Origin: Styela clava
Lineage: Eukaryota
Assembly: GCF_964204865.1 (NCBI RefSeq)
Contig: NC_135264.1
Span: forward strand, 7,068,001 to 7,132,000
DNA: 64,000 nt
Direction of reading: 5' to 3'
The notes below the pieces were generated by a model. It did not search any database and was not told the DNA's origin. It was given only the letters and a program-made list of their open reading frames with translations. The stretch's first letter is position 1. Each line of letters starts with the position of its first letter. Positions 5,317 to 56,185 of this stretch are shown here, piece by piece. The position numbers were made by a program, and so were the translations under genes.

Positions 5317-8300
5317 TCAAGTCTTTTATTCTGGAAAATTTTTTATATCGTCTTAGGCAAATGCTAATGATTATCATTATTATAGACGCTCTTATTACAA
5401 CAACAAAGACATTATATTTAAAAATGATAGCTGTTTTCATTCAATGTTGTATTGAATGCAATTTTAATATTTTATTTATATAATAGCAGGATTCCCCAGC
5501 ATACATGGTGAATTCTGTTTTGACTGATATTTTCACTCATTGGAGCATACATAAATTTTTATTTTAAAGATTCCCTTTTTCTCAGCTCAAATTGATTTAT
5601 ATTTAATCAAAAGTCGAACTTATCGAAAGAAAATGTTTTCAGAGTTTTAATCTTTCATTAATTTTAGGACAGCTTGTCTCATTTTACATTGATTGTAAGT
5701 CTAGCATGGCATAAAGATTCATATTTTTTCATCATATATAAAATAAACATCTAATATTATCCTGTCGACGACTTACCAAGCTTGCCTAATACACGGCAAT
5801 ACTTTATACACATGGATTTTACTTTTATCAGTCATGTTTTAATCTTTACCCGATTATAAAAAATCTGTGAGCAGGCAGATAAATGTAGAAATTATTTTAT
5901 CAATGCAGTAGCAAAATTGCAGTTTATTTCATTATCAGTTCAGCAGTCATGTTTATACACAATATATATAAATATATAAAAGATTTTTTTTATCACAAGG
6001 AATTCTGAAAACTAGCTAACAGTGTTTTGATATTCATGAAGTTATTTTTGTTTTGAAATATTTTCCTGGAATCATGTAAATGATTATTCGTTTTACGAGT
6101 TTTACCAATTGACTTCGTTATTCTATAACCACAATCTGGAATTACTGAATTTTGAGCAAAGTGTCTAAAATTCCCGCACAATGGTCAGGCATTTTAGTTG
6201 GGTATTTAATGCTTTATTTCATTTGGTCTCTACTCTCTATCGATAAAAAATTTATGCTGAATTTCATTTTTGTAAATTTGAATTGGGTACCTTGATCTTT
6301 TTACAAAAATAATCTCAAAACTTTTCAAAAGATGAGAGTTTGTTTTCACATGAAAAATATTTCGCTTCTCATTCTGACCAATTCTTGAAATCCTTTTTTC
6401 TTTTTGAATAGGTCTACATAGATGTTTTTTTCTAAGTGTTTAAAGTGACCTAGTTATTATTTAACAATATAGATGTATGGTTTTTATGCAACTTGAAGTG
6501 GATGGTGCAGTTTCGTTTTTGACTCAAAATATTTTATCAGTTACATTAGCAATCGTAGAATTAGTACTTTTTTGAATACAATACAATAAGTGCTGTTTAT
6601 CTTCTCAGTGATAAGCATAGGTAAGAAAGGGAAATTCATTTTACTCACTATTATGGCCTTCCTTTTTATTGCTTCGCTCTTTAAGTACAGTCATGGCCCA
6701 CATTGTTATTCATATGTGTTTGATTTTAGCCCAAAATAGGTCTTCCCTTCTTGAAGTGTAACATTGCCACAAAACTTGTTTTGTTTTTTACTTGTTTTTG
6801 TTGAAGTAATGTTGAGTGTGTTTTATAGATCCAATCCATCATTCATTCTTATTTTTTGTTGGTTGTTTATTACTTTGACATGCTGGACCAATTTGACTTT
6901 TTTTTGAAAATTGGAAATAAAAATAAAATTTGGCTTAATTGGATTTTTGTTCTTAACACACGCTCGGCTTCATAAACATTGAAAGCAGCTTTCAGCTATA
7001 TCTTCCTACATTATCTTATTGACGCCCTGCTAAAATCTTGTAAAAATTTACTAGGCCAACCTCCAAAAAGATTTAAAAATGTCAATTTATATTTACTGTA
7101 TTCACAAATCATGTGTAGGTAAAAAGTATTAACTGCCGTACACATTACTACAAAATTTGATAAAGACGATTTTAACAAAACGGGCTGCTTTTTAACTGGT
7201 TATTGGATTATTTCATTCGAACCGTTTACAGTGTCTAAATTTTATTTTGCCTATTTTTATGCTAGCAGGCAAAATTATTATTTAGTATAGTTATTATTGC
7301 TTGAATTTAGTTTATTAGGTTAGTCATTTATTTATCGCAAAACTAAGCTAATATACCAGTTACCAGTACATCTTCTCTGGGTTGACGACCTAATGTGCTG
7401 AACATCACCCGTAATACCTAGTTGTTCTTGTCTATTGAAGTGCCTTTCAAACGGACTCTTGTTTTAATAATAAATTGAATCGTATGTTATATCTACATTC
7501 ATAGATATGCATCCATGTAAGTGTACTTGAAATGAATTGCTTGGGCGACTCCACCTGCATTTGCCGGTGACGTGTAGTGCAACAAGCGTTACGTGGCGAG
7601 GATGACCCTTTAGGAGTAAGGGTATGGAAGGTGGCGAGAGCGGTACAGACTAAACGTGTCTCATAGTCGCAAATGCTGGAGGGTAATAGGTAATTTCGAT
7701 AGCACACCAGGCGCCCGTCCCGATTTGGCGAGATTGAGGCGCGTTTTTGTTTCAACGCTTAGGCATAATATTATATCAAAACCTGTATGTTAACCGAAAA
7801 ATGCATATATGGATTGTTATTTTGTTATCGCGATGTTCGGGTCAGTTGAATCGATATTTTAATAGATAGAACCGAGATTTATCGAATTCGAGTTTTTACT
7901 TTTTGGAATTTGTACCTGTTACCCACTTGCTGTTCTTACTAATTTAACGAAGAAATAAGTAGTTGAATGTGAAAATCGTAGACGCAGAGGCTGGGCTGTG
8001 ACATTTTTGTCAACCCGGAATAATGGGTCAGGGCCCATGTCGCTTTTTTGAGTGGTTCGCAATCGAAGGGAATCTTTTTACGTATGATCTCACCGCCATG
8101 TGAATTAGACGAAATACTTGTGGATATGTTAATAATTCCTAACGGAATACCACGTAATACATCTCTGGAAATTGGGCTGTAGGGCTGAGCATCTCTTTAA
8201 CCAATCCCCCTTTCAAAGTCGTTCAACAATTTATTTGAATATGGGTTGTTGAAAAGCAAAAGTTTGAACAAAGATAATACAACAAAACTTAACAGAGACT

Positions 8301-8386
8301 TGCTCACTTATGCCTATTATTCTACTCTTAATCATTTTATCAAATTCAGTTGCGATTCTCCGTTAGTGAGTTTTATTATTCCAGCA

Positions 8387-10244
8387 ATGACGCCTAATGA
8401 AGAAACTGAAGTTAAGCAGCGTGTTAAAAAGGGTCATCCGCAGAAATTATGGAAGCGAACTCAGAAGACTGAGAACAGAAAGAAACGACGGGAGGAGAAG
8501 TTGGATAAGTTTAAAGAGTGGCGTAAACTGGCACGTACATGCGAATTCCACGCCCGTCGACATTGGATAAAACTTCTTATTGGTGCTTTCATCTTTGTAC
8601 TGCTTATTGCCATGTACAATATGGCAGATCTTGATGATCAACGAACCCCTCCTGTGACGGATAAGGTAAGGGGACGTAACAATTCTGAAGTTGCTGGTTA
8701 CGTAGGTCTCGTTCATTTCACATTGTACAACAGAGCTACATCTCATATCCGTCATATTTTCCAAACTCGCAATATCGTCATGAGTAGCATGGTTTTCTTT
8801 ATGTAGGCTACTGACAAAATCGGTTGGGTTTAATAGTTACGGTGAAAATCGATTTTTTTTAACTTCTACATTCTCCTCAGCAAGAAATACATCGACAAGA
8901 ATATGGGAAAAAGATGTACATATGTAAACTTCGTGTTGCAAACAACACTTTTTACTAATTATTCTAATTGATCACTTTTAGGCAACAGATAGTTACACGC
9001 TATCAAAGTTGATGTCGATTTGCTATTCGATTCAACAGCTCTTTACTATTTAGAATTTCATTTGCAGAAGATTTCTATTAATCTTCAACAAACCCATTGG
9101 TGGTAAATTAGCACCACTAAAGCACATATGCCCAAAGCAGAACTTTATAGGGAGACATTCTCGCTACCGTTTGATTTGAATAGTAATTCATAGATTACGG
9201 TCTTAAAAGAATTTTGTCAGTCTGAGGTCTAAATTTTTTATTATTTCAGGTGATAGTTGAATTTGCACAAAACGGAACATCTTTGGGAACAGTTACTCTT
9301 GGTTTATTTGGTCAAGTTTGCCCCAAAACATCCACTAACTTCATAATGCTGGCAACTCATGAAAAGGGATATGGCTACCGCGGAACTCAGCTTTTTATGG
9401 TGATGCGTGACCACTTGATAGCGGTGAGTAAACAAACGTGAACCTGTGAATTGGTTTAGAGACATGGCAAGTTCGTTGAGATGGGTGCCGCTGATCGGCT
9501 ATGTATACTAGTTGTCCTACCGTTTTCCGGTAATTCAATAAATTCCCGAAGCGGCCCAATTGAAAATAAACTCAAAATTGCATATTACAGGGTGGTGATA
9601 CGGAAAATGATGACGGAACTGGCGGCAAGAGCGCCCTCAAGAAACCATTCCTAAATGAAAACTTCGGCGTTAGTCATACCGGACCTGGTTATTTAGGGAT
9701 GGTATCAATTGGAAGCGGCCATGGTATCAGCCGACGGATGTCACAATTTTATATCACGCTCGGTGCCTTACGACACATGGATGGGAAGAGTGTGATATTT
9801 GGAAAAGTGTTAAAAGGTTTAATATACTATTTTCTCCTCTTTTTTGTTTTATACCTTACTCCGCCCTTTTCACGTATTCTTCAGGGTGGTGCCATAACTA
9901 GAAAAATATAACAACTCTTGGAGATCTACAAATCACTGCTGGCCATAATTTGATGACGAGATTCATTCATAAATATTGAAACATAATACTGCATATTAAG
10001 CAGTTAATAGCTACACATTTCTTTTTCGTTTGATCCAAAGTTTTTTTTATTTCATTTATAAGTAGAACATTGAAAACCATCATTAGTCTTCATGATAAAA
10101 ATTAAAACACTTATTAATTTATACACTTTTTATTTGTATTTAGGTATGGAAGTCTTTAATAAAATTGCAGAAACACCGGTTGATAAAGAGAGTCGACCAC
10201 TGAAGAAGATCACTATTAAAAACATGGATCACACACCTAACTAG
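8387..10244 (+). CDS. Cyclophilin-family (PPIB/PPIC-like) protein with basic N-terminus and single TM anchor; predicted catalytically inactive; about 259 aa
   Basis: Exons 8387-8665, 9250-9423, 9591-9816, 10144-10244 (780 nt, GT-AG). Scaffold motifs PPVTDKV, GLFGQVCPKTSTNF, GGD, DGTGGKS, NENF, HTGPG, SQF, DGK, FGKVLKGMEV. Hydrophobic segment WIKLLIGAFIFVLLIAMY at about aa 60-77. Confidence 0.92.
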
Positions 10245-12112
10245 AAAACATTAGAATATATATATGTCTTTAATATTGGAAATTCTAAATCAGTAAATAT
10301 ATATGACATATTGTACTAAAATATCCCATGCGTGATTTCCATTAAAAATGGGTGAAGTTCAAAAACAAGATATCACATTTCAATATTTTTGGATATATAA
10401 TATATATATGTTTCATAGTTCTAGTAAGAAATACAAAAAAAGACATTCAATTTTTAAAAATTATAAAAAACTCGGTGTAATTTGCAGAGGTCTATTTTTA
10501 TTTCAAACCAAATTTAGGTCTAATATTCCAAACAAAGTATACGCTTTGAGATCTGACTGAAGAATGGCGATTTTGCGGTATGGCAGTCATTGTGGAATTG
10601 CTCTAATCAGTCTTTAAAACGATTTTTAGTTTTTGGTGAATTTCAAATCAAAATATTTGGTGATGGTGTTTTCTTATACAACAACAATTTGTTGTTTACA
10701 AATAAATAAAAACCTCAATATAAGAGCAAAGTTTTCAAGCCTCGCTATATTTTGCAACTTACATTAAAGGGGATGATGCGGCGGAGTTTCATGATAAATG
10801 AAATAGGGTAGACTGTGTATGGGCAGAAATTTTTGACCCACTCAAACATATAGACTACTTGCACCTTGCGCTCTAGTGGCTTTGATAAAAATTTTGATTT
10901 GTGTAAAAGTGTGAAACTTAAAATTTCACTACCTATTTTCTGGATATTTTAATATCGCTCCATATCGTGATAAAATTAATATGATGTTTCAAAAAACGTT
11001 TGGTGGCTTTTGACTACTTAATACACCAACACATTATTTGATAAACGATAGGATCTTCATCCATAGCTTTTTATAGGCCGACGGTGACAGGGCTTATGAA
11101 CCAAACTTTATATAAACACATATAAAAGTCGCTACCCAAGCGAAGACAATTTACAATTGACGAACGAGCTTTTCTCGCGGTGAGGCAAACGAACAACGAA
11201 AAACAAACACGCCTTTCTTTACCTGAAGACAAACAAAAGGACTCATATTCCCGTCTGTTAGGTAATTCCAACGGTTCTCTCTCGTGTCTGAAATCTCTGA
11301 AAGAACAAGTGAGAGACAACAATAATTCTGACCAACGACTTGCCACGTTTTAAAATACATAGCCACATATTTGATCCGTTGTGTTTTTGGACCTATAATA
11401 TATCACTAAATGAGAAGAGTTCAGAATGTTTACAACTTTAACATTAGTATGTTAGCAAATTGCTACGGGGGTCCAATTTTGGCGAGAATTGTCTGATCAA
11501 GCATCGTATATTTATATTATTTTTCAGCGAGCATAGTGTAAGAGATGAATATAAGTAAATATTGGGTGTTATTTTCCATCAAAAAGTTTTTATTTTACCA
11601 GTACGAAGTTTAAATCTCCAAATTACTTGAATTTGTCTTTGTTTATTTTTTATCACTTTCCCTTTAAAACCGTTGGCCATAAATCCTCTTCAAATCTATT
11701 GTTTGGAATAATAACTCGCCGAGTTTGTAGTTAAATATGCTATTGAGAGAAAAGCTAATAGAAGTGCCGTTACAGCTTAGGTCAGTTTTATGGCGTGGGC
11801 CGAAGAATCGAACGTAATTCCTTATAACCTCCAAGAAACCGTTTTATTATTATAGCTAACCTATTGTGTGTGTAATGACAGCACGAACGAAAGTTTCTTA
11901 TCCAAATATATTTAAAATATATACATACATATTTAATATTGAATAAAATCTGGGATAATTGTTAGCTCAGCCAACGGCCGCCTTTGTTATACATCGCCTC
12001 GGAGATTTAAAGATCCATGTCACCTACATAAGAAATGTACTGAGGAAAAAATTTTCGTGGGCAGGTTTTCGTTTGAGGGCAAGCCTGGCAAAGTATTCAG
12101 ATCCAGACAAAC

Positions 12113-15100
12113 ATGTCCCAACTGGTTATTCAGAACGACATGACGGTAAGAAGATTTGTATTTTATATTGTGAATACGAGGGCTAATGTTAGGCTACGTC
12201 TCCTTCGCGCTTTAGACGTGTTTAGGCGTAGGCTGTTTTTGTCAATTTTGTGTTCAGGTAGGGTATGCTTAGTTTTATCAGCGTAACGCATATCTTTAGG
12301 CTAGATTTCAAAGTGATTGGTGCAATTTGTTGGAGCCGAGACAAAATTTGATAAAGGAAACATTTTAGGTTATCGAGCATATAACTATTCTATATTCAAG
12401 TGGCTAATAGCAAGAAGCCTTGTTTTGAAAGTCAGGAAAAATTACACTTTTGAAGATTGGAGATGTTTGATAATACTGCCCAGAAACACTATTTCAGCTA
12501 AATTTCAAAATTTTGTCAGTGGCACATTTCACATGTGATGTACCACAATTAATTCATTTTCTTCCGACCTTCAGAACGTATTTTCAAACAACGACAGTGC
12601 TTTAAGTGCAATCGCTGCTTTTGCTAGCCAATCATCAACGTTGGACGGGCAAGATCATCATGCACAGCATACTGCGGCAGCTCAAAATGTCTATGTTCAT
12701 ACTAGTAGCCCCAACACGGGTGACCCGGCCGTTACAACTCACAGTCCTTACACCCCAGGACCCCCATTTGAGTATCAAATGCCACAAGAAAAAATGGTAC
12801 TTCCCGTGAAGTAAGTGTTTTTCAGTTATAGATAAATCAATATTTAATTTCATTGATCTTAATCAGAAGTTAAAATTTTTAAGTTTAACACTGACCTTTT
12901 TTGTTGGCAGCGATTACCCAGGCGATTATGGATTTGAAATATATTTTGGAGAGAAGACACCATCCGCTCCAAAAAATGCACAATATACGGTAAATATCTT
13001 TCTGTATTGTATGGATTGTTATTTAATATTGAAATCCATATTTTAATTTCAATTTTATCTTAAAATTTGACGTAATGTTTCAAGTGATAGACAAATTTTT
13101 GTATATTTTAGCTGGCATTAGTTCTCAGCTGATAAAAATTTCCTTGAAAAATTTCAAATAATATATTACGGTCTCATGTTTTTATATCTATAATCACGGG
13201 GCCACAAAACTCTAAAATGCTCTAATTTGCTATATTTTTTCATACAGCATTCTTCAATTCTCAATAAACTATTTGTAAAAATGAACGTTACCTGCCCAAT
13301 ACATTTCAAGTGTAATGTTCCTCCTCCTCAAGGATGTATTATTAAAGCAACACCGATATTTAAACGAGCGCAACATATCAAAGACATTGTAACGAGATGC
13401 CCGAACCATAAAATCACAGATACAGGTTCGTTCAATTTTGATTGCATCTTCGCAAAACGATCAGTAGGTTATTTATTGGATTCGCTAGGTAGATATCTCC
13501 GGTTTTTAAAATCCTGGTTGAAACTTCTCTTTGTAATCAAACCCTGTTCAATTACACATTATCTATTGAAAACTAATAAATGTTTAACCGGTGAAAGAAT
13601 GACTGGAACAATTTCTAAATTGTAGTAGAATTGCTAGTAATACACGACAAAGATTACATGTATTTTGTTCTGATGGAATTTCAATATGAAGAATAAAATT
13701 CTTGTTCAAGTGTAATGAATGATATTTAAGATCATGTGTAATCGGGACTTATTTGCACTCCAATATCCGTGACTTTTCCAACTTCAAGTCCCAAATATTT
13801 TATCTTGTTGATACAATAAACTACAATCTGACAACGACTGTTTTCAGTTGAAAACAACCTTTAACCTTCACAGAGTTTAAAATGCCAAGTCATGTCCCCC
13901 ACAAAGCAATATTTTCCAACTATACAAACAATGTTCTTTACGCTTTTCAAGTAAGCAAACAGTCGTTGTCATTGATAGCTTTAATATTAGAAATTGTCTG
14001 GCAACGGCAATTTGTGTTTGATGGGATGGTTTGCAAGTGTTTGCAGCGACTCAGCCAACAACAAAAATATTGTAATACTGTATTTCAAAACTACAAATTT
14101 TAAATTTCAATATTGGCTACTTGGATTAATTTAATATATTCATGTTTTCAGGAACTCCAAATCATATTCCCGTGAACCATTTAATACGCGTAGAAATGCC
14201 TACCGGTCGCCATAATGTGCAGTATAACTACGGTGCAGATGGAAGAGAGAGTGTATCAGTATTATATGAAAATCCACAGGTATGTCAATAATTTATCAAT
14301 TTTTTACATACAAATCGGTAGATCGTAGATTGTGTGGTTTCTTAAAAAAATAAATATTTGGTACATCATGAAAATTATTAAACAATCTGGATTAAAATAT
14401 ATATTTTGTAGCAAAATCAAACGTCAAAAAATCAAAATTGTTTTGCGCAATGGACAAATAATTCAGTCTATTTATAAAAGAAATAACAACTGTATATCAT
14501 AAATGCATGATTTCCAAACTAAACCATGTTTTGGTGTCTTACTTGAGCATTTGAATTTTACGTGTTTTTTGTCGCTATACTGTCGAATTTTTCTCGCCCT
14601 CTTCTATATATTTAGTGCAATGTGGTCTCAGAGAAACGTATTTTGTTATTCACACAAATATACAGTAATATGCTATGTTTATATTTCAAGGTTGGAACAG
14701 AATACAGCACAGTATTATTCAAATTTATGTGTTTGTCAAGTTGTGTGGGCGGAATAAACAGAAGACCTCTTATGTTGGTGTTTACGTTTGAGAATATGGA
14801 GTGAGTTGATGCTACCGTTGCTTTTCTTGTGTATACAAAATTTTTGAAATGTTTATTTTAACAAATTTGAATTGTCCAATAAAATTTCAATTTAGATGAT
14901 TGGATAACTGGACAATTTATTAATTTTAGTTGTTTTTCCCTGTGTTTGAAATGTTTTGAGAAGTTCTTAAGTTGTGGTTAGAACTATATTGTTCTTTAAT
15001 CAATTATTTAGTAATTTTTGATTCGTTTTTTTATTGATTATCAAACTATTTTCACAGAGGTCAAGTTTTAGGCAGAAGGGCTGTGGAAATGCGTGTTTGT

Positions 15101-51232: not shown

Positions 51233-53567
51233 CCCCAGGCTATAGGCCATTTGTGACGCTCATCTTCAATGGTGACGTCACGTGGAATTTACTATGACAT
51301 CATAATAAGCATTCCACTTTTCTTTTGAAATATATCATGACGACATATAATAATCTTTTAATTCCGTCATATACAAAATTTTATCTACAGGCAAGATACG
51401 TACTCTATTCACCCAAGGAGAATGATTGCGAGTTGATTGATTTAAAAACATTTTAAGAAACTCAACTGTAATAAAACGTCATGACACCAAAAAACCTGAG
51501 GTCAAAATATTTATTTCTAACCGCGAGAGATAGGGGAGCATGGCCTAGTTGCTGACGAATAAAATTATAATTTTATTAATTGAAATAAAGGGGTATACGA
51601 TAAAAAGACACGACAGTAAAAATATAATATTTCTTAGATTCGTTATTGCTCAGATAAATTAGCATGGCTCTAAATAGATATTTTATTTTAAATAAAGGCT
51701 ACATTACATTAAAAACTGTTCAATTTATCTAAATTAGCATATTTCGTTTTGAAGATTGAAGAGGCAGAATGTTTCAAATCCGGAAAAATACAGTTATTCA
51801 ACCGTATTTGATTTTTTACCTGGTAAACTGTATATATTTTGAACACAAATTTTAAACCGAATAAAAAATTGAACAAATATCAAATAACAATATGTCAATG
51901 ATTATATATATCAATAGCTTGATGAAAAAGTGTATCTTTACCTTACAGTGCATTCAGCTTCGACTGTGTCACTTCGGAAAAGTTTATCGACATTACAGAA
52001 ATCTGATTCAAGTTTGATCCAATGGCAACTAAATTTAACAACGGTTTGATACCGCACCAATGTATACTGACTAACCGTCAATATTTCCGCCTTTTTAAAA
52101 ACGTAGTTTATAAAGAAGAATATAACTGGTTGTCTACCATTATCCTTTCGTCAGACTTTTTTAATTGAGTTAAAGTATTGTTAACCGTGCTGTACACTGG
52201 CATCTCTTGCAGATCTTCAGAGCCAGCAACTTCATTCTCGTTGATGGAGTTACCCTCATTTGCACCCGAAGCAGATCGATATTTAATTAATCTAAAAATT
52301 GAATTTAGAACTGTAGAAATTCATTCCTTGCGATAAAATGATATAGCATTATGTGTGTATATATCGTAGTTTAACAATACCTTACTGTTGTATACATCAA
52401 CAAAACTGTCAAAAACATCCAAGAGCGATCACTAATGTAATGTAGTTAGCTTCTTTTGCTTGGTTAAACCGGTCTTTAGTGCCACCGGGAATGGTCGTTT
52501 CAACATTCGATCCATACCTGCTGTTGTTGAAAGAGCCAGTCTCATAAGTTGGGTTGTCAGCTGCCGTCGTTGTCGCAGCTACACTGACCGTTGTTGAAAC
52601 CGGTGTCCTGGTGGTGGCTAAAATGAAATCGATACTTCGATTTAAACTACATTATGCATTGAAAATTAAATATACATCATAATACTTACTGATGTAATTG
52701 TTACAGTCCACATAGGTGTACTTTATTCGAAAATTGTGTTTACTCTCGTAATACTCTTCTTTGTTTTTGAATGTAAGCTTGGGTGGATATGTAGCGTTCC
52801 CCAACACCCAAATTTTTTGACTGCAAGTTGAAGTTACATTCGATAAAAGTTCACAGGTTTTGTATATTCGTGAAAATATGAAACAAACACCTTGAGTAAA
52901 ATCGCAAATGTTTTGCCCTAAAAATGAGACAGTTCAATATTAATCAACATAACGTTAGGTAAGTTTTTAGGATGTTTGCAGTTGAAACAGATATATATAC
53001 CTTGTAAATCTAGCTCCCCAGTACACCACCAAGTAGTTGACTCATACAAGTATATTAATTCCATTTGTAAAACAATCATATATATCGTTATTTTTGTCAA
53101 TATTTTCGGAGAATGTCCACGCGCAGTTTTTAACTTGGTTTTCCGTTTGCTAATCGTGAGTTGATATATCCAACTTTTTTACTTAGATCATTTGTCACCC
53201 GGCAGTCACCTCGTGTTGGTGAGGAAATATATATATCTGAATGAGGAATCGTTGAATTAATGCTAATTTTTTATATTCTTCATCATATTTCCCCCCGACA
53301 TAAAAGTTTGGTTTTGATCATTTACCTGACCTGTGAACTCCTGAATATCTAATGCTGTACTGTACGAGTATCCCCTAATAGAAACAATGCCTACAGACAA
53401 AACGCCTTCAATTTGAAAGATTGCTACAAGATGTGATTGGGAACTTCTTGCATAGATCAGATTTAAAAACAAACTGTGTTAAACATCCCAATGAACTTGG
53501 GAATTCCATGCGATACAGGCAAGATCCCGTGTTGCCCAGTCGCCTGGTTTAATTTTCTATAAAGTTT

Positions 53568-54262
53568 CGGGTGTCTCCAAAATGTCGTGTCCTACGTGTC
53601 TCACTTTTCCCACGTGTCCTACTTGTTCGACGTGTCCCACTTGTATCACGTGTCCCATTTGTCTCACTAGTTCCACGTGTCCTACGTGTCCCGCTTGTAG
53701 CACGTGTCCCACTCGTTTATTATATATGCACATAACACACGAGATAAACTGCCTGGTTATATTTAGTTTTGATAGATATGTTTGCAATCTTGCTAATTCA
53801 TTGTCGCCGTTAGGAATCCGTATTTTTGACATTTCGCGGAATAGAGAAATCTGTACTCGTAACACCGATCCGCTTTATCGCAATGCTGCCACTCAGCTTA
53901 TTTTTAAGATATACCCGTTATCATCTCACGAAGTAAAATTTATTTTAGTACTATAAAACCTAATTGGATTAATTAATTTATTATCACAATCCGCGTTGCG
54001 TTTACAACTTTGTATAATGTTTCAGTGATTCGATTCGATTTTAGTCATGGTATGGTTTCCAACGCTAACCAACCATAATGTGTGCCTGAGGCGAAACAAT
54101 TGACGATTTTAGCAAAATACACGCGGTATTAGCGACTAGTGGGACACGTGGGAGAAGTGGGACACGGGACAAGTGGGACACCAGGTACTAGTGAAACACG
54201 TGGGACACGGGGAACAAGTGGGACACGTGACACAAGTGGGACACGACATTTTGGAGACACCG
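53568..54262. mobile_element. MITE with 9-bp subterminal tandem repeats (Merlin-like)
   Basis: About 24-bp TIR CG(G)GTGTCTCCAAAATGTCGTGTCC, perfect 8-bp TSD TAAAGTTT, CACGTGTCC/CACTTGTCC arrays in mirror orientation. The paralogous site near 61506 is empty. Confidence 0.88.
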
Positions 54263-55389
54263 TAAAGTTTCCTATATTTGACGTCTTATACCAGCTAGAC
54301 CAGAATAGGCAGTACAGTAGTTTTGATAGCTCAGTATTTTGTTCAGATCTTACTAATGCGAAGCTCATAGACTCCCGAGATATTTCCGTGAACCTCAAGT
54401 CCACCGCCCATCGGTTGGAAACCCATTCAGTTTGTCGGCATGCGCCGGCAACGCTTTCAATTCCTTACTGTATGTATCCGCTGAACAGCGTTTATGAAGG
54501 TTTCCCATCAGTTTCCTTGTTTATTTCCGTAACTATAACCAATCAGCAAGGAGTCAATAATGACGCAACACGTAACAATTGCAATTTCTGCACCCTGCCG
54601 CACAGACACTTCTGTCGCTAAAACAGATATTCAAGCATGGTTGCAAACATTGCCTCGTTTTTGTAGTTTTGAATGATTTTTGTCAGTTTTCAGTTGTATT
54701 TCAAGAAATTTATTGTGAATTAATTAACCTAATTGTCATTATGTTTTCCGCAGAGCTTTACTTTAGTTGCAGTAATCGAAATTGAATCTCGCAAATGCTG
54801 CGATGGACAAAGCTAAACTTAGCTATATGTAGGGTGCTATCGATATGAACCCAAAAATAAAGACATCAGGGAAACATAATAATAGAATAACAAAGAACGA
54901 AATGTAATAAACAAAATGTATTCATGCAGTGGCGTATCTAGGTAAAATGTCGCCCATGGCAAAGGTTTAAAAATGCGCCCCCTACTTCGCTTGTTTCCTT
55001 TTTTCGTTTACATGAAATTGGTTGCTCTCAACTACGCAACATAACAAGCAAATTAATAACTACACAATAAACAATAAGCAGTAGGCGATCGGCAATAACA
55101 AGTTCTTAGAATACTATATATATTTCGTGACGCAAATTTGCCAATGATTTCATCAAAATTTGTTTTTCTTGTTTCACCCCTCTTTATACTTAATATAGCC
55201 AGATCACAAAGGTTTCCTGGCTAATTGAAGATCGAAGGTATGACAGAATTAATTTTAGTTTACTAAACGACCGATCGCAATTTTCTATGGATACTGCCAA
55301 TGTCAGCAAAATTTGCAAAGCTATCCGGAGATTGGGGAGATCCAGAAAAGACTCTTTGACACACACTGTTTTCTCGTCATAGTCTATAT

Positions 55390-55696
55390 CTTACATGGGC
55401 AAACTACGGCCCGCTGGCCAAATCCGGCCCGTTGGCTATTTAAAACTGGCCAGCCTGATGCTTCCACAACCAAACTAAAACCAAATTTTGATGTTTTAGC
55501 TGAAAAATAGCTCGAGGAATTTGTTTAGATTGCGATTAAATTTAGTTTCTGCACGAGGCTAATTGTTTTGCACTTTTGCTTTTGTAATACTGTAAATATT
55601 GTCCATAATATGTAACTTTTTACGTCACACTTACATTTCCCGTCACTATAGGCGGGCAAAATGGTTGGCCCGTGAACCGAAGACCTTGCCCCCCTG
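55390..55696. mobile_element. hAT Charlie-type MITE nested in the transposase remnant
   Basis: Perfect TSD GTCTATAT; degenerate ends (GGGCAAACTACGGCCCG ... TTGCCCCCCTG); subterminal GGCCCG repeats. Confidence 0.82.
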
Positions 55697-56185
55697 GTCT
55701 ATATTAACAGACCTCACAACTTCTGAAACCTGATCTCGATGCGCCTGGTCATGAGTTGAGTCAAATATAAGACCATATGACTTTGCTTTTTTAATTTTTC
55801 CTGTCAAGTTTTTGCGAACATGAGATGCCATAATGTGAATAAATTCGTTTTGAACACCTGGGGAAATGTAAGAGGTTGAATGTGGATGGCTTCCAATGAA
55901 ACCGAGATGCTCTCGCAGCACAGGATCAAAGACGGCAAGGAATTTTATTAAGCCAAGAAAATGACCAACATTTGAATTACTATCTGCTTGAAGTGACTCC
56001 CTGTGCCCTAACAAAGCGAGATTTTGTTCCGCCAGACACTTTATTCCATGCGATATTCATTTAAGAACCCCACTACATTTTTGCCTTTCCTTTTTAATTT
56101 GTACATGGAAATCGGCGTCAATAATTCTTGTTTATTGCTCAAATTTCTTTACACGCTGTAAAACATTCTCTCTCATTGTAAGAAT

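Follow-up and report, generated by a model that had tools for sequence, protein, structure and literature searches.

A putative membrane-anchored pseudo-cyclophilin of likely cyclophilin B origin in Styela clava

Introduction

The inactive cyclophilins of man are mostly nuclear or cytosolic. PPIL4 is a human cyclophilin that lacks Arg55 and, like PPIL2, PPIL6 and SDCCAG10/CWC27, it has the cyclophilin fold with substituted site residues; some of these proteins bind proline peptides, and the inactivity of human isoforms is tied there mainly to position 121 (PMC2911226). In plants, rice OsCYP21-4 has an N-terminal transmembrane segment followed by one cyclophilin domain in which two of seven key residues are kept, and it is reported as inactive in vitro and Golgi-resident (PMC4589654). 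Golgi placement of CYP21-4 is attributed to its N-terminus, and the protein has been proposed to act as a PPIase-independent chaperone (PMC4589654, PMC5517489). The family, which comprises rice OsCYP21-4 and Arabidopsis AtCYP21-4, is described as land-plant-restricted (PMC4589654). Inactive cyclophilins, including a membrane-anchored one in plants, are already known. Among animal proteins, Drosophila NinaA is a type I protein with a C-terminal anchor and a largely kept active site. It is a secretory-pathway cyclophilin, tissue-specific and integral to the membrane, with rhodopsin as its one client class (PMC7641896).

The gene described here lies at positions 8387-10244 (+) of the window, the whole stretch of 64,000 nucleotides of Styela clava DNA that was analysed. 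PPIB and PPIC (PDB 3ich/3ici, 1cyn, 8k0f, 2esl) are its best matches in both sequence and fold; the signal region is homologous to theirs, and intron 1 is common to the gene and the PPIB of this genome. The styelid protein differs from them in nine site changes, a 59-aa basic extension and a 4-residue insertion; an acidic linker takes the place of the basic N-terminal patch, and the docking residues and the C-terminal tail are gone. With CYP21-4 it shares an N-terminal hydrophobic segment followed by one cyclophilin domain without most key residues, and a CYP21-4-like protein was the third match (0.91) in a feature search of the ESM Atlas. Since CYP21-4 is land-plant-restricted this likeness would be convergence and, compared by description, the styelid protein is to be regarded as an analogue and not a member of that family. 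NinaA offers an animal precedent for a client-specific membrane cyclophilin, although its anchor is at the end opposite to the putative N-terminal one of the styelid protein, while the inactive human cyclophilins differ in being often multidomain and without membrane anchor. An earlier note, made from the letters of this DNA alone, had presented a type II membrane pseudo-cyclophilin with a rebuilt active site. Its architecture has a precedent in plant CYP21-4, whereas searches of the open-access literature brought up neither a report on this gene nor an account of a PPIB-derived type II pseudo-cyclophilin from an animal.

Gene structure and transcripts

The gene consists of four exons (8387-8665, 9250-9423, 9591-9816 and 10144-10244, all on the plus strand) that amount to 780 nt and are separated by GT-AG introns. 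The 259-aa product is identical at every residue to P0001, that is, NCBI XP_039257675.2 of Styela clava, which NCBI names 'peptidyl-prolyl cis-trans isomerase 6-like' ('PPIase 6-like'). Exon 1 (aa 1-93) encodes the basic extension, the hydrophobic segment and the acidic linker. Exon 2 (aa 94-151) carries the first strands, an NGT sequon (9271-9279) and the changes R55M (9397-9399), F60H, M61L and Q63A in CypA numbering, and exon 3 (aa 152-226) carries A101V, N102S, the loop insertion (about 9708-9740), F113Y, W121H, L122M and H126S, as well as a Gly at the position matching PPIB K97. The last helix and the last strand are encoded by exon 4 (aa 227-259, plus the TAG stop codon).

Contigs of four runs (X1, X3, X5 and X9) were aligned to positions 7800-11000; the runs are RNA by inference, and weight was placed on intron-skipping joints alone. 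Contig joints of the GT..AG type bridge all three introns in X1, two of them in X3, one in X9 and none in X5, whose contigs cover only exon 4 and the 3' end. One contig spans position 8351 through exon 3. The gene is intact, as the earlier note had inferred, and spliced. Untranslated stretches flank the coding sequence at 8351-8386 (+), where contig cover starts at 8351 (X3 record 5) and 8364 (X1 record 3), ends that are not proof of the true transcript start, and at 10245-10706 (+), where cover extends to 10675 and AATAAA/ATTAAA hexamers lie near 10341 and 10701. The share of the words of the gene present was 0.30-0.36 in four runs from one study and 0.05-0.08 in five runs from two others. 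Contig depth is unsuited to ranking expression, and therefore no tissue restriction is claimed. Among the contigs a single coding difference, the synonymous 9623 C>T, was found at the gene. An earlier RefSeq version, P0095, differs from P0001 at four of 259 residues (V9I, L64F, K119R and M145I); all four changes are conservative and none falls on the nine site positions, in a comparison made at the level of amino acids.

The donor of intron 3 is weak (GTTTAA, window positions 9817-9822) and yet is joined in X1 and X9, the X3 contigs breaking nearby. Upstream of the gene, a pyrimidine-rich tract at 8340-8351 ends in CAG, and the AG at 8348-8349, 2 nt before the 5'-most contig base, is a possible cis- or trans-splice acceptor; an upstream coding exon, if present, could extend the N-terminus. 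Neither of two ATGs further upstream (8241 and 8310) is in frame. Judged by searches with exons 1 and 3, the gene is single-copy in the Styela clava genome. A tandem copy or a genomic donor of exon 1 was considered and rejected, since the genome search returned one match, exon 1 itself.

Active site and fold

The nine canonical site residues of Davis et al. 2010 (PMC2911226), R55, F60, M61, Q63, A101, F113, W121, L122 and H126, all differ from the family consensus and now read M, H, L, A, V, Y, H, M and S, respectively. When the protein was compared with P0064, a CypA-type reference sequence with CypA numbering, the ten substitutions given in the earlier note (R55M, F60H, M61L, Q63A, A101V, N102S, F113Y, W121H, L122M and H126S) were all confirmed, and three further changes were found, namely H54F, A103I and T107R. 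Such an extent of change is found in none of the 85 aligned relatives: 76 have no site change, four have one, three have two and two have three, which is the maximum. The loss is selective, with 0/9 site residues kept against 38 of the 58 other positions that are conserved at 90% or more among relatives (Fisher p=0.00023); on a wider list of 13 site residues, 2/13 are kept. R55, Q63, N102, F60 and H126 are replaced non-conservatively, by residues that occur at these positions in 0/85 relatives. Retained residues include G72, T73, S110 and Q111, and three of the changes (M61L, F113Y and L122M) are conservative. The 4-residue loop insertion, placed after position 104, is also as previously noted: 11 residues separate positions 102 and 110, against seven in 94 of 96 rows, and the only other row with 11 is the second RefSeq version of the same gene.

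His at position 121 allows cyclosporin to bind and occurs in five human isoforms (PMC2911226), and W121H is found in 3/85 relatives. The W121H change reported in the earlier note, which called W121 important for cyclosporin binding, is present, and it permits such binding (PMC2911226). Since His121 is permissive, the case for inactivity rests on R55, F60, Q63, N102 and H126. When the residues of an active PPIase are required (Arg55, Phe60, Met61, Gln63, Ala101, Phe113, Trp/His121, Leu122 and His126), the protein offers only His121, the permissive variant. Judged from these residues, PPIase activity has very likely been lost.

The scaffold of the domain is retained. Pfam PF00160 is matched over aa 103-254 with 112.5 bits (cut-off 21.7). 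An AlphaFold2 model, built on an 87-row alignment of canonical cyclophilins, has mean pLDDT 82.5 and pTM 0.64 and shows one long helix (18-86) followed by a domain of cyclophilin topology, a beta-barrel capped by two helices, in which the pocket-side loops 158-168 and 192-200 have pLDDT under 50. The top Foldseek matches of this predicted model are CypB and CypC (E 6e-19), with TM 0.83-0.86 to CypB chains. The kept scaffold motifs of the earlier note are borne out by the 38 of 58 conserved non-site positions, whereas at variable positions (under 60% conserved) 11/51 residues are kept. This pattern of conservation indicates constraint on the fold but not on the pocket. A pseudogene was rejected: in a neutral, substitution-only simulation, 3/1000 runs were still stop-free at 45% identity, and the scaffold positions are retained as stated.

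The earlier note had gone further and called the site systematically rebuilt. This part is not sustained, as selective loss of the pocket on a kept fold is expected both from release and from rebuilding, and orthologues that might distinguish the two were not found. The search with exon 3 against longer proteins returned only the protein itself (1/77 candidates), and that with region 40-160 did likewise among 98 candidates. With the whole protein, 94 of 583 candidates matched, all but the protein itself at 35-45% identity, and the site pattern was present in 0/85 aligned relatives (eight of the 93 other matches, P0047, 50, 51, 52, 61, 65, 76 and 89, were left out of this alignment). Exon 1, used as query instead of the whole domain, found only itself among 1.84 billion representatives; a metagenome scan confirmed 0/129 pattern matches; and aa 1-95 gave no usable match in the ESM Atlas. 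Since relatives that evolve fast are overlooked by word-based searches, and ascidian proteomes may be thinly indexed, these blanks do not amount to absence from other ascidians. Without orthologues, a rebuilt and a released pocket are therefore not separable, and for dN/dS the paralogues are too distant.

The N-terminus and the predicted membrane anchor

The protein begins with a Lys/Arg-rich extension of 59 aa (8387-8563, +), predicted to be cytosolic and helical, for which no relatives were detected. Residues 1-59 contain 21 Lys/Arg and nine Asp/Glu, and the net charge over aa 1-60 is +12. The hydrophobic segment that follows (aa 60-77; 8564-8617, +) is the sole one in the protein; its best 19-mer has a KD value of 2.17 and its core is short, about 14 residues. 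The basic N-terminus preceding a single hydrophobic segment thus matches what had been noted earlier. The segment is homologous to the core of the PPIB signal peptide, aligning to residues 16-33 of the human PPIB precursor and to exon 1 of the PPIB gene of this genome. In the pairwise alignment Ala80-Asp81 (8624-8629, +) coincides with PPIB Ala33-Asp34, the signal cleavage site of PPIB, a register that the multiple alignment moves by one column. The transmembrane helix of the earlier note therefore stands as a hydrophobic segment, but as a homologue of the PPIB signal peptide that retains Ala-Asp it is also compatible with cleavage.

Several properties distinguish this N-terminus from that of PPIB and PPIC. 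A short N-terminal signal peptide is not found, the homologous segment starting about 60 residues in. The start of the hydrophobic core is at residue 64; of 42 other N-termini listed, 39 have theirs at residue 18 or earlier, and the remaining three look like mis-predicted or over-extended models. The resulting n-region is more than three times as long as that of nearly all relatives and, among the PPIB-like paralogues with modelled N-termini (a set that does not include the tandem pair on C9), only this gene has a long extension before the hydrophobic segment. Long n-regions, Asn at -3 and the absence of a helix breaker disfavour signal cleavage; here Asn stands at -3 of Ala80-Asp81 and no Pro/Gly helix breaker precedes it. 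The charges that flank the segment, +4 before and -3 after, give a single N-proximal segment with positive-inside bias and therefore fit an N-in/C-lumen (type II) topology. From these features the segment is predicted, and likely, to be an uncleaved type II signal anchor.

A downstream start that would give a short, cleaved signal was rejected, there being no Met at residues 2-75 and one contig running from 8351 into exon 3; with the upstream ATGs out of frame as well, a short-signal isoform has no start. The only sequon of the protein, NGT at N101, is present as previously noted but is no evidence of topology, the same motif occurring at the same place in the signal-less CypA-type P0064. An amphipathic juxtamembrane helix was also rejected, no 18-mer window having beaten its shuffles (best fraction 0.07).

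Likely origin from cyclophilin B

In phmmer searches PPIB chains scored 135-144 bits and CypA/CypD 103-105 bits, and identity to PPIB/PPIC over the domain is about 42-47%. The residue at CypA position 71 is Asp, as in the PPIB of this genome. The PPIB gene of this genome and its two tandem neighbours have intron 1 in common with the gene (phase 0, ahead of the first strand); it is the only one of the three introns to coincide with any of the five of that PPIB. A 39-row tree, made up of 10 sequences from this genome and 29 out of the 93 further protein-search matches, puts the gene on the longest branch (3.1 substitutions per site) and outside the cytosolic clade (100/98). AU tests did not reject its grouping inside the cytosolic clade (p-AU 0.077) and marginally rejected a direct sister relation to the PPIB of this genome (p-AU 0.038). 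An origin by duplication of a PPIB-type gene is likely on the basis of similarity, the signal homology and one intron; the tree is no proof of it. A single nucleotide separates the position of intron 2 (9423/9591; phase 0, before Gly64) from that of an intron in the C13 paralogue (L039:6041/5129; phase 1, inside Gly64), possibly through a one-nucleotide intron slide beside the Q63A change.

CypB docks on the P-domain of calnexin/calreticulin through K9, T36, K97 and K183, located opposite the active site, K97 being essential (PMC7687155). With the numbering mapped through amphibian PPIB (offset 32), these residues are lost in the styelid protein, K9 being replaced by Pro (P89), T36 by Val (V116) and K97 by Gly (G177), while K183 is absent; the PPIB of this genome keeps three of the four. 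The C-terminus has neither the PPIB tail nor a KDEL/HDEL-like signal, whereas three paralogues carry HDEL-like endings. With docking residues and tail lost, service in the calnexin cycle like that of PPIB is, judged from sequence, unlikely.

Possible function

We propose, with a probability of about 0.58, that the gene encodes a signal-anchored, luminal and catalytically dead derivative of PPIB that, tethered in this way, binds or escorts a limited range of secretory proteins. In the model, the gene would have arisen as a duplicate of PPIB, and the gain of the 59-aa basic extension together with the loss of the second Met of PPIB would have converted the signal into an uncleaved N-in/C-lumen anchor. 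The short hydrophobic core, the basic cytosolic flank and the missing luminal retrieval signal would be consistent with residence in the ER or the Golgi. Catalysis would be absent because Arg55, Gln63 and His126 are lost, and the domain, on the analogy of CYP21-4 and NinaA, would bind clients other than those of the calnexin cycle. The client-specific chaperone or receptor role put forward in the earlier note is an inference.

Other explanations share part of this evidence. The hydrophobic segment could be cleaved as a signal with a long basic n-region and the dead domain secreted, with an extracellular role, in the tunic, the haemolymph or the coats of gametes, for instance. Homology to the PPIB signal, the Ala-Asp pair in pairwise register and the short core would agree with cleavage, and the C-terminus without the HDEL-like signal of three paralogues with secretion; but the length of the n-region, the Asn at -3, the absence of a Pro/Gly helix breaker and a model helix that continues to residue 86 make this unlikely. 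Alternatively, the pocket may have been rebuilt for a new ligand, M143, H148, H213 and M214 lining the former proline pocket beside the inserted His/Arg loop and forming a soft-metal (Cu/Zn/Fe) or specific-ligand site, and the protein would be a luminal carrier or surface receptor and not a chaperone. His/Met make up four of the nine new site residues against 0.52 expected from BLOSUM62 (P=0.0009), although the test is post hoc and gives P=0.046 if Cys/Asp/Glu are also counted. The loop insertion is unique among the 96 rows, and positions 60 and 121 adjoin in the pocket (PMC2911226). Nevertheless, the gain was accompanied by the loss of His126 and Met61, leaving a net His/Met gain of two, L122M is conservative and W121H is common in the family, so that we regard a rebuilt pocket as quite unlikely. 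The most ambitious form of the idea is just as doubtful: a PPIB copy turned into a type II receptor or carrier with a His/Met pocket, at the extreme of an undescribed radiation of ascidian secretory pseudo-cyclophilins (three without Arg55). If it were true, a new ligand would have been acquired by the cyclophilin fold within the secretory pathway of animals.

It is improbable that the gene is a weakly constrained duplicate, slowly decaying or folding only as a spacer or stalk, with pocket changes due to drift and no client. The longest branch of the tree, four amino-acid differences between the two gene versions and other degenerate duplicates in the genome would fit such a history, and pocket loss with core retention is what release from function alone would produce. 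However, the open reading frame, splice sites and scaffold have outlasted a saturating divergence that few neutral runs survive, the four polymorphisms are conservative and lie off the nine site positions, and 9623 C>T is synonymous. A residual or altered prolyl isomerase activity, or proline binding, directed to a special substrate, perhaps with R199/R200 of the inserted loop replacing Arg55, is very improbable. Although G72, T73, S110 and Q111 are kept, three changes are conservative, the His at 121 is a permissive residue and proline peptide is bound even by inactive human isoforms (PMC2911226), the non-conservative changes of Arg55, Gln63, Asn102, Phe60 and His126 to residues seen in none of the relatives count against it, as does OsCYP21-4, which with 2/7 key residues is inactive (PMC4589654).

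As a tethered, catalytically dead PPIB derivative, the protein would represent a copy that keeps its fold although the two surfaces through which PPIB is known to work, isomerase pocket and calnexin dock, are lost, and hence a natural experiment on the role left to a luminal cyclophilin that has neither. It would also be an example, predicted, of a signal peptide turned into an anchor. Taken with the two paralogues that lack Arg55, it suggests secretory helpers peculiar to ascidians, a proposal whose weight is limited while it rests on one species.

Related genes and genomic neighbourhood

The genome contains at least seven PPIB-like genes, including the presumably dead copy at 8387-10244. All nine site residues are kept in the canonical PPIB and in its tandem neighbour ending in HGEL, five in a copy ending in HSEL (R55C) and eight in the C13 gene. 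In an intronless pair on C8, one gene has R55K and keeps 2/9, while the other retains R55, keeps 3/9 and ends in HSEL. Hence two other secretory-type cyclophilins of this genome are without R55 (R55C and R55K), and by these counts the gene at 8387-10244 is the extreme case of a local trend of site loss among PPIB-like genes.

The canonical PPIB and its HGEL and HSEL copies form a tandem cluster on C9 at about 2.42-2.44 Mb (L036:5900-8289, L037:1-2519, L038:2430-6628), and the HGEL and HSEL endings of the duplicates resemble ER-retrieval signals. The HSEL copy on C9 has, besides R55C, an altered 101-109 loop and an upstream exon of His/Asp/Glu-rich repeats, and its sequence suggests a possible pseudo-cyclophilin of the ER that carries a metal-binding tract. 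The two open reading frames on C8 (L040:4567-5235 and 5403-6077), adjacent, intronless and signal-bearing, encode 222 and 224 aa and are probably retrocopies.

About 3 kb downstream of the gene and on the same strand, the window contains a p53-family exon (13194-13625, +; PF00870, E 4.5e-15). At 53495-54621 and 55646-56056 the window has tandem-like repeats that are short and rich in Thr/Cys/Pro/Gly, together with a fragment of DUF4371 (E 3e-7, slightly under the cut-off) that suggests a transposon remnant. Finally, four copies of a cyclophilin gene that we take to be PPWD1-like lie on C1 at 25.90-26.05 Mb (L012-L015), with identical matched exon translations and a spacing of 36-78 kb, as the result of either a recent segmental duplication or an assembly duplication.
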